Origin: a virus | Strand: one strand, 5' to 3' | Length of the DNA stretch: 14,337 bases | Virus genome (UHGV): UHGV-1688991 | Shown here: positions 9,723 through 14,337 of the stretch, piece by piece | Layout of the letters: each line of letters starts with the position of its first letter | Numbering within the stretch: the first letter of the stretch is position 1 | Translations under genes and position numbers: made by a program | Notes under the pieces: model-generated | The model's database searches: none | What the model saw: the letters and a program-made list of their open reading frames with translations, nothing else | What the model was told of the DNA's origin: nothing

Positions 9723-11456
9723 TTAAAGCGAGCGGATCCCATAGGACTCAATGTGGTCAGACAGCGTGTCTTCTTTCTCGTACAGCATGGCTCTGCCAAC
9801 CGCCATAATCAGCGCAACTGCACCATCGATTTTGTTTTCCGCCTGCTCTTTGACGGGCTTCACCACATCATCGTTACCCGGAATGGTTTTGCCGACCACG
9901 TTGCCGATACACCAGGTCATGATGGGATTGCCATCATGATGAAAGCGCCCCGATTCAATTGCCGCTTCCAGCTCTTTCATCGGGTCGGACATGTTGGTGT
10001 AGTTCTGAATGATAGTGATGGGGTTCAGGTCTTCATCAGCAAGGTCATGTGACAACCCGGTCGCCCCGAAGGGGTCGATGGGTGACTCACTGACCGGGCT
10101 GATTTTGTTCGCCGCTTTGGCCTCCTCGAGGATGTAGCGATAATCCACCTCCGCACCATCGGTAACGGTCAGAACGCCCATTTCCACCCATTTCTGAAAG
10201 CGTTCGGCTGTCCGTCGATCTTCATTTTTCTCGACGCTGTACACCGTGTCATACGGTACCCAGAAACGCGGGGCCACACTGTAGTAATGCGTTTTACCGT
10301 CAATCTCGCGGGTATAAAGTCGCGCCATGCTGTTCATATCCAGCTTACGCGCCAGGTCAAAGGCCAGAATGCACGGCTGCCCCTCGAACTGCTCAAGGGT
10401 CAGTGATTTATCCTCGCAGCTCTGCCAGCTTACCAGGTTGAAATACGCCGAACGCGCCGACACCCAGATATTGAGGTGTTTTGTTTTAAAGACGTTTGCC
10501 AGACGGGCGTTATTTTTCGCACGCTGTTGCTGACTTAACAAAAACTCACGGTAAACCGACACCCCGATATTCGGGTTGGCTTTTTCCAGCACCTGTGGGT
10601 TGGTCCAGTCGTCACCTTCGTCAACGGTATAGATGATCCCGAACAGTTCATCGTTAGGCACCGAGCCGTTGAGCATCTCGATGACTTCCCGCCGCTTGTC
10701 GTAGCACGGCCCCTCAATGTTGTACCCGGCGGTGGTGATGGCCCACATCAGTGGCTGACGTCGCGCCCCCATCCCGGTAAGCATTGTGGTATAAAGCGCA
10801 TCGGTGGCATGCTCGTGATATTCATCAACCACGGCACAGTGGGGTGATGAACCATCACCGGGGTTGCCGATCAGCGGTTCAAACCGCGCGCCATCCTCCG
10901 GACGGTTCATGTTTGAGGCGTTAACCTCAATCCCGAACGCTTCCGTCAGCATGGGTGTGCGTTTACACATCAGTCGCGCCGGGCGAAAGACTTCCCACGC
11001 CTGTTTCTCTGTCGTGGCACCGGAATACACTTCCGCGCCAAACTCGTTATCACAGGCAAAACAATACAGGGCAACACCGGCAGAGATTGCCGATTTGCCG
11101 TTCTTACGGGGAATTTCGGTATACACCTCCCGGAAGCGGCGCAATCGGGTGCCTTTATTGACCCAGCCAAACGCACAGCAGATCACAAATAGCTGCCACG
11201 GCTCCAGCGTGATGGGCATCCGTTTGAATGCCCACTCACCCTTGGTATGCGGCAACAGCTGAATAAATTTGGCGGCCCGTTCAGCCAGGTCCTTGTCGAA
11301 GCGGTAACGAAACGACTTACTTTTTTCCGCCATCAGGTCATCAAGATGGCGCTGGCAGGCCTGAATCACAAACTGGCAGGCCACAATCTTTCCGCGCACG
11401 ACATCCCGGGCATACTGATTTGCAGCATTTACGTTGGGGTAAGATTTCCGGCTCAT
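9723..11456 (-). CDS. Terminase large subunit
   Basis: 577 aa with Walker A-like PRKNGKS, Walker B-like AVVDEYHE and C-terminal nuclease-type acidic motifs. ATGA overlap with terS. Confidence 0.92.
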
Positions 11457-11947
11457 GATTCGATAATTTTCAGAAACGGGTTAGTGGCTTTCTTCTGCCC
11501 CGCCAGGCCAATCAGACGCTGGCGGCTGCTGGGGTCGAGTCCGAGCATTGCCCCCGTGCTGCTCATCTCGGACTCCTGTTCTTTTTTGGCGGTCAGCTCC
11601 GGATTTTTGACCCTGCCGCCCATTGCACCGGTGATGGTGTTGCCCTGTATGGCAATATTTTTCACGGCACGTCGCCAGAACTCATAGGCCACGCACCACC
11701 GCTCAAGCACCGCGAGGTCAGTCACGCACAACAGGCCCTGACCGCAGAGTTCTTTGGTTGTCAGTTGCCACATGATCGTGGCGAGAGGGAGATTTTCTTC
11801 TGCGAACCACTCCGGTGGCTCAACACCTTTGATGGGCGTAAAAACAGGTTCATCTTTATTCAGGGCTCGCTTGCCGGGGTTTCCGGCCAGCGCCTTGCGC
11901 GCCGTTGGCTTGGGGCGACGCCCGGAACGCCCCACCGTTCCAGCCAT
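11453..11947 (-). CDS. Terminase small subunit (P27-family-like)
   Basis: About 164 aa, basic N-terminus ([13 protein letters not shown]), immediately upstream of terL. Start revised to ATG 11947 with SD AGGAG 8 nt upstream; the track's GTG 11956 would fall on this SD. Confidence 0.8.
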
Positions 11948-12072
11948 ATGCGGCACTCCTGGTTAAATTTCATTTTTCGCGGGTATAAAAAAACGATGGG
12001 GCGGGCAGTCCGGAAGACGTCAGGCCGCAGGGATTTGACCCGCCCCTCCCCTCAGGCAGTTGAGAATTATTA
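11948..12072. other. Candidate cos / packaging-initiation region
   Basis: The only non-coding gap between HNH and terS. It has a GC-rich core with inverted GGGGCGGG (11999-12006) and CCCGCCCC (12040-12047) arms, next to an AT-rich tract (11975-11995). The position matches HK97-type cos sites. Confidence 0.35.
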
Positions 12073-12423
12073 TCACTTCAACCGTTCACGGGCCGTCTTC
12101 GCCTTATGACACGGCCAGCACAGGCTCTGCAGATTACTGTCGGCATCAGAGCCGCCATGCGCTTTAGGGATGATGTGATCAACGGTTTTCGCTTCACGCA
12201 CCACACCGGCACGCAGACATAACTGACACAGGCCTTTGTCACGCTTCAGCACACGCGCGCGGATAACGTCCCACTTCGAACCATAACCGCGCTGGTGACG
12301 GGACTGACCTGGCTTGTATTGCCTCCAGCCTTCGCTTTTGTGGCTTTCACAATAGCCTGACGGATCTGTGGTGGTATGGCGGCAACCGCGAACACGGCAG
12401 GCTTTTGGGATTCGTGGCGGCAT
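12073..12423 (-). CDS. HNH endonuclease, terminase-associated
   Basis: 116 aa; N-terminal Cys cluster (CRVRGCRH...C) and C-terminal DHIIPKAHGG...NLQSLCWPCH HNH motif. Positioned immediately upstream of terS. Confidence 0.85.
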   Translation of the reverse strand: MPPRIPKACRVRGCRHTTTDPSGYCESHKSEGWRQYKPGQSRHQRGYGSKWDVIRARVLKRDKGLCQLCLRAGVVREAKTVDHIIPKAHGGSDADSNLQSLCWPCHKAKTARERLK

Positions 12424-12835
12424 ATGTACTAATCTCCGATTTATCCAAATTTCACTGCCATAATGCCGACATTCTCTGCCATTATTGGCTCCGTTTATCC
12501 GTTAAAAGGGATATCAGTTAAGTTATCCCGTGTAGGGTATAAGCCATTGTCGAGACCACTCATTGAATGGTCTCTGCAATAACCGATGTCTTTCCATCAG
12601 TCCGCCACCACAAAGAATCTTTTTTGCCATAAGGCAGGAGGTTCATCTTTCAGTGGCTGCCAGTGTTATTTCCCCACTTACTGGCTTGGGTTGCTTCGTG
12701 GTACTGCCGTTAACTGGTGGCGCACAGATTTAGTTAAATCTGTTCTCGCATGATCCAGCTTTTACATACCCGGATTGTGGGGATGCAAATCACGGTTTCA
12801 TTATCAAGCCCACCAGTAGATGGGCTTTGTAATGG

Positions 12836-13093
12836 CTACTTCGCTTTTGCTTCCGCTCGCTTACGCCGGCGCTCTTCTTTCCTCTCGGCTTTTGCCATGT
12901 CCATGAATGCCTGCATGATCGAGTTCCGCATCATGTAGCTAACAAAGTGATGATTGACACAGCCGTTGAGGCGCAGCTGCTCGCCAAACTCATCCACCGA
13001 GGCCAATGCTTCCATCATGCCCTTCTCGCCTTTCATGAACTCTGAGAAGTCGCGCCCCGCTCTGGAGGCGCATTCAATAACACGATCACTCAT
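12836..13093 (-). CDS. Hypothetical protein (85 aa), translationally coupled to the KilA-N gene
   Basis: ATGA start/stop overlap with the upstream gene at 13090-13093. Highly charged C-terminus (ERKEERRRKRAEAKAK). No family recognised. Confidence 0.5.
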   Translation of the reverse strand: MSDRVIECASRAGRDFSEFMKGEKGMMEALASVDEFGEQLRLNGCVNHHFVSYMMRNSIMQAFMDMAKAERKEERRRKRAEAKAK

Positions 13094-13587
13094 CCCGGAA
13101 GCCCGGGGATCGTAATCTGCAGCTGGTTAGCCAGGGAGTTAATCTCAGCGACCAACACTGGCTTCGTATAGCGCCATGCTGCCAGCCCTTGTCCGCAGAA
13201 GCTCGCCATGTCTTTCTTCTGGTCAAACTCATGACATTTCATGTTGAGCTGCGCACTTAAGCTGTTGCGATGCTGAAGTTCTCCGGTGAAGTAGTCATCG
13301 AGGACTTTATAGGCCGCGTACTTGAACCCGGGGTTTAACCAAGCCGCATAATCGTAAGCAACAAACTTCCCGCCATATGTTCCACCGTGTACACCGCGCT
13401 CAGTAAAAACCACAGATTCGTGGTTTTTCTCCAGCTCGGCTAAGAACTCTTTGGTCTGCTTGTTTCGCAGGTAGTGGTAAGGCGATTCAGATTCACTTTT
13501 ACCACTGGCTTTCCACATATCAGTGAGGCAGATCATTCCTGATTCATCAACACGGATCGGTGTATTAAAAAGCGTGATTGCTTTCAT
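13090..13587 (-). CDS. KilA-N domain protein (antirepressor-like)
   Basis: The N-terminal ~100 aa match the KilA-N pattern (...ICLTDMWKASGKSE...RGVHGGTYGGKFVAYDYAAWLNPGFKYAAYKV...). Start set at ATG 13587 (SD AGGT upstream); the track's longer ORF from 13656 has no SD. Confidence 0.6.
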   Translation of the reverse strand: MKAITLFNTPIRVDESGMICLTDMWKASGKSESESPYHYLRNKQTKEFLAELEKNHESVVFTERGVHGGTYGGKFVAYDYAAWLNPGFKYAAYKVLDDYFTGELQHRNSLSAQLNMKCHEFDQKKDMASFCGQGLAAWRYTKPVLVAEINSLANQLQITIPGLPG

Positions 13588-13738
13588 AGCGTCTTTACCT
13601 TTTAGAAAGATGAGCCTGTTCGCACAGAAAAGCCGCCCCGAGATGGTCGCCACCATATACGGCAGTTCTCAGGCTCAACTTTCTGAAAGGCTCGGGTGAT
13701 GTAATATGCGCGTGAGATGCGCTGTGAAATTCAGATGT

Positions 13739-13762
13739 AAAAAAAGCCCCGCATCGCGAGGC
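13739..13762 (-). terminator. Rho-independent terminator downstream of Rz/Rz1
   Basis: The minus-strand RNA would form GCCUCGC-GAU-GCGGGGC (7-bp stem with one G-U pair) followed by UUUUUUU. It lies 33 nt after the Rz stop. Confidence 0.55.
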
Positions 13763-13794
13763 TCATTAAATGGACTTTGTGATTTGCAAAAAAA

Positions 13795-14337
13795 TTATTT
13801 CAGGCATTGCGTCCTGATGTATTCCTGCAGGTAGTTAACCTGCGCGGTTATCTTGTCGATTCCACTTCGGAGACGGTAATAATTGAGTTCAGCATCTGCT
13901 GTAAGTCCTGGGCTTTCTCCATCGCCCATGCCGCTGGCTCCGGTCGTTGACTTTGCACAGGTGGCGGCGACTTGCAGGCGCTTACGCCCAGCAGAAACAT
14001 CAGCACGGAGACTTTCGATAGTCGCGTTAGCATCAGCAAGCTCCTTTGTGTATCTTGCGTCGAGTTCTGCTACATCACGTTGACGCTTCCGCATGTCAGC
14101 GATGGTGGCGTTCGCCTTCTCCAGTTCACTGGCCTTGTTATCGCGCTGCTCTTTGTAGGCGATTGCGTTATCACGGTAATGATTAACAGCCAATGACAGG
14201 CAGAGGGCATTCTTCACACCATCCTCATCCACATGAGTCGTAATGTAATCGGCTACCTGCTTCAATTCATCACCAGCATTGCCCATTGCTACACCTACAC
14301 CTGCCTTCTTGATGATAGAGATGTCGTTGCCGCCATC
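13795..14337 (-). CDS. Rz: Chimeric ORF, 5' end outside window: Cof-type HAD hydrolase C-terminal segment fused in frame to an Rz-like i-spanin lacking its TM anchor
   Basis: From about 14200 downward the protein aligns with lambda Rz along its length ([10 protein letters not shown]...YTKELADA...GRKRL...). Upstream, the same frame reads [45 protein letters not shown], the C-terminal motif of Cof/YidA-type HAD phosphatases. The frame is open to the window edge. Confidence 0.6.
13848..14033 (-). CDS. Rz1: Rz1-like o-spanin lipoprotein, embedded in the Rz frame
   Basis: In the +1 frame inside Rz. Signal peptide with lipobox (LLGVSAC) followed by a Pro-rich region ([13 protein letters not shown]). 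ATG 14033 has SD AAGGAG 7 nt upstream. Confidence 0.7.

Follow-up and report, generated by a model that had tools for sequence, protein, structure and literature searches.

The 125-nt non-coding gap at positions 11948-12072 of the 14,337-nt stretch of viral DNA analysed here (the window) is very probably the cos site of a temperate myovirus prophage of the SfV/SfI type, which is very common in E. coli and Shigella. As such it is an already described feature and no new kind of element; its identity with the site of phage SfI suggests that it would act as cos in this prophage too. All genes around the gap lie on the minus strand, and the gap extends exactly from the upstream HNH endonuclease gene, whose stop codon ends at 12073, to the downstream small terminase gene terS, whose ATG occupies 11947-11945. 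The HNH gene (12073..12423, minus strand) encodes a 116-aa protein with an N-terminal zinc ribbon and an HNH domain (Pfam HNH, E = 2.8e-16), which is a packaging accessory nuclease. terS (11453..11947, minus strand; 164 aa, P27 family; Pfam Terminase_4, E = 3.9e-20) has a ribosome-binding site, AGGAG (11956..11960, minus strand), read from the sequence 8 nt ahead of the ATG at 11947, and is followed by the large terminase gene terL (9723..11456, minus strand; 577 aa; Pfam TerL_ATPase and TerL_nuclease). The gene order is HNH, terS, terL, portal, S78 prohead protease and HK97-fold capsid; because head-tail connector proteins, tail sheath, tail tube and tape-measure protein were matched in PHROGs further downstream, the element represents the late region of a myovirus prophage. 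The HNH-terS-terL adjacency, taken from the sequence as HK97-type in an earlier note on this DNA, was borne out by Pfam and by homology to HK97 gp2 and gp74 (see below).

In gene sense the gap reads TAATAATTCTCAACTGCCTGA GGGGAGGGGCGGG TCAAATC CCTGCGGCCTGACGTCTTCCGGAC TGCCCGCCCC ATCG TTTTTTTATACCCGCGAAAAATGAAATTTAA CCAGGAGTGCCGCAT, followed by the ATG of terS. The same note had described a GC-rich core beside an AT-rich stretch, and both are there: the core motifs were all found on the gene-sense (minus) strand in the order given (GGGGCGGG at 12046..12039, GACGTC at 12021..12016, TCCGGA at 12014..12009 and CCCGCCCC at 12005..11998), and the G+C content is 74% in the core (11998-12051) and 26% in the adjoining 11963-11997, with 54% for the whole window.

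The cohesive end of this site can be read from SfI. Direct run-off sequencing of SfI virion DNA termini found 10 nt, 5'-TGCCCGCCCC-3', missing relative to the prophage, and SfI packaging was concluded from this terminus sequencing to be of the cos type (PMC3636060). An identical decamer, the cosN core, is present in the window at 11998..12007 (minus strand) with the same flanks, between the HNH gene and a P27-family terS in an SfV-like late operon. The SfI record ends at window position 11998 and restarts at 11997. The window agrees with SfI throughout the decamer, the preceding GGAC and the sequence between the cut and the terS ATG except at +1, which is A in the window and SfV and G in SfI; in the half from the G-rich box (G box) to the spacer (both described below), SfI-group phages differ from the window by a few substitutions. 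By megablast against phage records, the HNH-gap-terS stretch was 91-98% identical to SfII, SfI, SfIV and SfV, which convert the serotype of Shigella flexneri, as well as to several E. coli and Salmonella phages, and several of the matching linear phage records end within the gap. The gap is 125 nt in SfV as well, split in the record into 58 nt after HNH and 67 nt before terS. According to the SfIV paper, SfI, SfII, SfIV and SfV have one common cos site; in the SfII paper, cos is assigned to bp 59-125 of the phage record, corresponding to window 12014..11948. The proposal that cos lies in the HNH-terS gap is thus supported by comparison with mapped ends of related phages, the check that had been suggested for it: the SfI end is present unchanged at 12007..11998 and includes one arm of the GC-rich core. 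Against the cos reading stands the break of the SfV record at 12015|12014, which disagrees with the SfI end at 11998|11997. The GenBank records of SfV, SfIV and VIT_AJPSC are all broken at this point, 17 nt upstream, with sequences that are the same as that of SfI, and the SfV-style record start is probably not a true genome end.

A cos site of intact appearance could also be a relic in a defective prophage that is never cut in its host. We consider this unlikely. No more than 14 kb of the element is visible, and 1121 of 5426 complete E. coli genomes contain it, many of them necessarily with cryptic copies; on the other side, every packaging or head gene of the window is a full-length open reading frame with a strong family match, and the cos core and the terS-proximal block are identical to those of plaque-forming SfI, SfII and SfV. 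Knowing the exact cohesive-end bases fixes the genome ends for a prophage type carried by roughly one in five complete E. coli genomes.

Conservation of the gap was examined among related loci. A first scan returned only 98-100% identical copies; a second scan, based on a terS alignment with one genome per species, reached divergent relatives and yielded 62 related loci, with hosts that include Enterobacteriaceae, Yersiniaceae, Morganellaceae, Orbaceae and Burkholderiales. Of these loci, 57 have an HNH homologue upstream, encoded on the same strand. When 48 relatives, spanning Enterobacterales to Comamonadaceae with terS identity down to 46%, were anchored on the AT-rich block, ~90 bp, starting at the G box and reaching TTTAA, aligned essentially without indels. 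Three elements (the G box, an AC|YGCC edge and a 29-nt AT-rich block) were ungapped and kept fixed spacing across all 48, far beyond chance. The G box (GGGGAGGGGCGGG, 12039..12051, minus strand) is the upstream conserved cos element, with 82% mean identity to the window over 47 relatives, and adjoins the heptamer TCAAATC (12032..12038, minus strand), which is also conserved in relatives. Then comes a 24-nt spacer (12008..12031) of constant length and variable sequence (44% mean identity); GACGTC and TCCGGA are palindromes within it, and its last four bases are GGAC. On the left side of the overhang that follows, the edge AC|YG was kept almost throughout (A in 46, C in 48, Y in 48 and G in 47 of the 48 relatives), YGCC at the 5' edge of the cohesive end being nearly invariant and the right edge variable; cosN as a whole averaged 67%. 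The 29-nt block (TTTTTATACCCGCGAAAAATGAAATTTAA, 11963..11991, minus strand), at +7..+35 from the cut, occurs once in the window, has 18 invariant columns and reached 94% mean identity over the 47 relatives. By the same measure terS third codon positions stood at 45% and the terS protein at 73% mean amino-acid identity. The comparison gives packaging biochemistry defined targets: a tripartite site with fixed spacing, a 29-bp block whose conservation exceeds that of the terminase protein and, as discussed below, an edge that matches HNH specificity. A strict GAC-N10-GTC dyad around the overhang, seen in SfI, was rejected as a family feature: GTC directly followed the 10 nt in only 17 of the 48 relatives, and GAC also preceded them in 12 of these 17.

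With moderate confidence, we regard the 29-nt block as a candidate recognition site for the small terminase, comparable to cosB. HK97 terS, a nonamer, recognises 15 bp at +15..+29, CTAACCCGATTTTTT, and its binding requires a C:G pair at position 21 with the adjoining A-tract, the N-terminal basic arm of the protein sitting in the minor groove (PMC11331095). The block overlaps this position, and within it the window has ACCCGCGAAAAAT at +14..+26. The terS N-terminus is basic and nearly invariant across the relatives (codons 1-14, 11906-11947). It resembles an AT-hook-like basic arm, and the proteins of phages Gamma (MAGRNKQP) and GVE2 (MGRKAKP) begin similarly. Sequence comparison of terS with HK97 gp1 found no similarity, the Pfam families of the two differ, and a Foldseek search with terS returned no significant match. 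The earlier note had seen the AT-rich stretch as a possible source of terminase or IHF binding sites. Terminase binding is plausible, as no DNA of the locus is more conserved than this stretch, whereas the IHF part fell away: allowing one mismatch or fewer, the IHF consensus WATCAANNNNTTR had no match in 11948-12072.

A block this conserved, 15-45 nt before the start of terS, might instead be a promoter, operator or leader of that gene rather than part of cos. This is improbable. No sigma-70-like promoter was found in the gap, and no Rfam family or tRNA in the window. Loci of Xenorhabdus, Photorhabdus, Providencia and Morganella have the terS ATG 50-70 nt further from the block, but the spacing to the cut and to the G box is unchanged. 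Because the block-to-cut distance is fixed and the block-to-ATG distance is not, the block is tied to cos and not to translation initiation; HK97 terS, moreover, binds at the equivalent position. Viral contigs provided 79 copies whose terS is 98-100% identical; in these the gap hardly varies in its terS-proximal half, downstream of CTTCCGGAC, and has several distinct alleles in its HNH-proximal half. This allele pattern suggests a recombination junction at or near the cos cut.

The GC-rich side of the gap invites a different reading, in which an inverted repeat followed by a T7 run forms an intrinsic terminator or some other hairpin at which the HNH/lysis transcript would end. On the coding strand GGGGCGGG is followed after 33 nt by CCCGCCCC and, 4 nt later, by TTTTTTT, and the minimum-free-energy RNA fold does pair both arms. 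The fold was, however, no more stable than those of shuffled sequences (z = +0.44; 135 of 200 shuffles folded at least as well), and the perfect 8-bp inverted repeat GGGGCGGG/CCCGCCCC was matched or exceeded in 115 of 2000 gap shuffles (5.8%), which is not beyond chance. A terminator scan had no match in the gap. RNAalifold on the 48 relatives predicted 0 pairs, and covariation in the stem was absent (69% of cells paired versus 71% in shuffles, with a partner slid by -1 equally good); in close relatives whose G box is GGGGGAGG the inverted repeat is disrupted, and the T run stays in register with the block downstream and not with the stem. Having neither covariation nor excess folding energy, the repeat is compositional. 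With the stable, conserved hairpin plus U run of an intrinsic terminator not found, we judge a terminator highly improbable. Headful (pac) packaging, in which the gap would play no role in end formation, is extremely improbable: no evidence for it was found, SfI has unique, cohesive ends, the HK97-type terL has an adjoining HNH gene, and the related phages SfII, SfIV and SfV, whose packaging by a pac mechanism would have spoken against the earlier note, were reported as cos phages in contrast to the pac phages Sf6 and SfX.

As a cos site, the gap has the layout of HK97. The window terL (ATPase and nuclease domains) is homologous to HK97 gp2 (26% identity, E = 5e-30), and its HNH protein, encoded next to cos and the terminase genes, is 36% identical to gp74 over 69 aa (E = 2e-10); an HNH gene beside the terminase is the arrangement described for HNH-dependent packaging (PMC13595911, PMC3592412). 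The ends of the HK97 record are 10-nt 3' cohesive ends, and their cleavage is stimulated by the gp74 HNH protein. The right end reads ...GGGCAGGGGGGGGGATCAAATC, 24 nt ending in GAC, then the terminal CGCCGCCAAA, and the left end begins GTTTGAATTTAACGCTAACCCGATTTTTTTAG...; in the window, correspondingly, GGGGAGGGGCGGG-TCAAATC is followed by 24 nt, the last three GAC, and then by the decamer mapped in SfI. The HK97 G box is GGGGGGGGG and the TCAAATC heptamer is identical to that of the window. The HK97 and SfI ends, determined independently, therefore share both the upstream motif and the distance to it. The HK97 overhang CGCCGCCAAA aligns with the window decamer but differs in sequence, the downstream AT-rich sub-elements come in a different order, and the distance from the HNH gene to the end is ~320 bp in HK97 and 66 bp in the window.

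The overhang length of 10 nt is backed by SfI, and HK97 likewise has 10-nt 3' ends. The polarity of the overhang is assigned by analogy with HK97 and from the SfI run-off reads: both reads left a gap rather than an overlap, which points to 3' extensions, the template strands being recessed at their 5' ends. We infer nicks at 11998|11997 on the minus strand and at 12007|12008 on the plus strand (CA^GT), which would leave 10-nt 3' overhangs.

A similar layout appears in HNH phages of Gram-positive hosts. The window HNH protein is 35% identical to the HNH nickase of phage Gamma (N.phiGamma, E = 5e-16), and its best match among solved structures is the GVE2 HNH endonuclease (5H0M, full-length alignment, E = 5.5e-12). 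In Gamma, whose host is Gram-positive, the G box GGTAGGGGCGGG is followed by TCGAAAA, 24 nt ending in GTAC and then CGCC..., the start of the cohesive end CGCCGCCCC; the Gamma box also matches the window arm, as GGGGCGGG-TCGAAAA. This 9-nt sequence has been published as the cohesive end of the Wbeta group (PMC8878798, PMC4113786), to which the Bacillus phages Gamma, Wbeta, Cherry and Fah belong, compared with 10 nt in the window. Its polarity has been given both ways, as a 5' overhang by PhageTerm (PMC8878798) and as a 3' extension (PMC4113786). After the Gamma end comes AT-rich DNA and then a terS annotated in the record as P27 family (TIGR01558); BLASTP found no pairwise similarity between it and the window terS. 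GVE2, with the G box GGGTAGGGGCGG, and phi105 keep the layout with a 23-nt spacer. A G-rich box and a TCAAATC-like heptamer 23-24 nt before the cos cut were thus seen in phages of both Gram-negative and Gram-positive hosts, and no description of a role for them was found in the searched literature. The phiP27 and GVE2 records are not cos-oriented and carry no mapped ends. In the GVE2 record (NC_009552), terS is annotated from 134, so early that its coding sequence would include the G box and the AT-rich block as well as the predicted cut GGGAC|CGGCGGGGGC; translation probably begins at the ATG near 250 (MGRKAKP...).

The conserved edge of the overhang coincides with a known nick site. The HNH proteins N.phiGamma and GVE2 HNH nick CG^GT, which is AC^CG on the other strand (PMC3592412). 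Assuming 3' overhangs, the bottom-strand cut is CG^GT in Gamma, HK97 and the family consensus and CA^GT in the window. The AC|YG edge (window 12007-12011, minus strand, GGAC|T; Gamma; HK97) is the nick site of terminase-linked HNH proteins, and in Gamma the nickase's own site falls on its own cos edge. This match suggests that the HNH protein may cut the bottom strand at AC|YG and terL the other strand. That HNH and terL nick one strand each is an existing proposal, in which the strand assignment was left open (PMC11331095 among its sources). The overhang polarity in the Wbeta group matters here, since it bears on the strand that carries the HNH site. Against the HNH protein as a specific nickase, HK97 gp74 and the lactococcal sk1 HNH protein (HrdP), each assayed alone, were reported as non-specific nucleases (PMC3592412 among the sources). 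Xu and Gupta measured the nick sites without relating them to cos, and a link between the HNH nick site and the cos edge was not found in the papers searched. The overhang edge and the tripartite site bear on how terL and the HNH protein divide the two nicks.

It is conceivable, although we hold it only tentatively and at somewhat less than even chance, that HNH-linked terminases of Gram-negative and Gram-positive hosts share a single cos grammar: a G-/C-rich box, a TCAAATC-like heptamer, 23-24 nt, (G/T)AC|YG as the HNH recognition site, a 9-10-nt C-rich overhang and a CGCG/A-tract terS site. Its examples would be the window with the SfI family, HK97, Gamma, GVE2 and phi105, the last off by one base. 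If so, the HNH protein would make a sequence-specific nick in the bottom strand and terL the top-strand nick at a measured distance. Neither a family-wide tripartite grammar nor the match between overhang edge and HNH specificity was found stated in the searched literature.

The lambda cos site, upstream of the small terminase gene, is also tripartite (cosQ-cosN-cosB) and is cut to a 12-nt 5' overhang. It resembles the site proposed here in that the nicking site lies between an element upstream and a region downstream for terS binding, but it has 5' and not 3' overhangs and no HNH partner, and the terminase families are unrelated. Lambda uses IHF, which stimulates its cos cleavage (PMC13595911), and R-site repeats, whereas no IHF consensus was found in the gap. 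The G box and heptamer are placed where lambda has cosQ, and a shared role could be proposed by analogy. In this cosQ-like position the G box may be a protein-binding or termination element.

Taken with the cos reading, these elements can be ordered into a mechanism. During late growth, concatemeric DNA would be recognised at the 11948-12072 gap, where a terS ring may bind the AT-rich block 7-35 bp past the cut (ACCCGCG, then A/T tracts) and so position terL and the HNH protein on the GC-rich cosN. Binding of the 29-nt block by terS, the division of nicks between HNH and terL and the part played by the G box are all predicted steps. Two staggered nicks, at 12007/12008 on the plus strand (CA^GT) and 11998/11997 on the minus strand, would leave 10-nt 3' cohesive ends, TGCCCGCCCC and its complement. 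Packaging would then proceed from terS through the head and then the tail genes, and the G box with TCAAATC, 24 bp ahead of the cut, would most likely serve cleavage or the termination of packaging.

The region upstream of the HNH gene differs from that of SfV. Between Rz (13795-14286) and HNH the window has ~1.4 kb (12424-13790), compared with 26 nt in SfV. This stretch holds a KilA-N/ORF11CD3 regulator-like gene (13090-13656) and an 85-aa phrog_875 open reading frame (12836-13093); its part at 12424-12835 is poor in open reading frames and has a plus-strand terminator-like hairpin at 12620-12641. The insert looks like a moron cassette.
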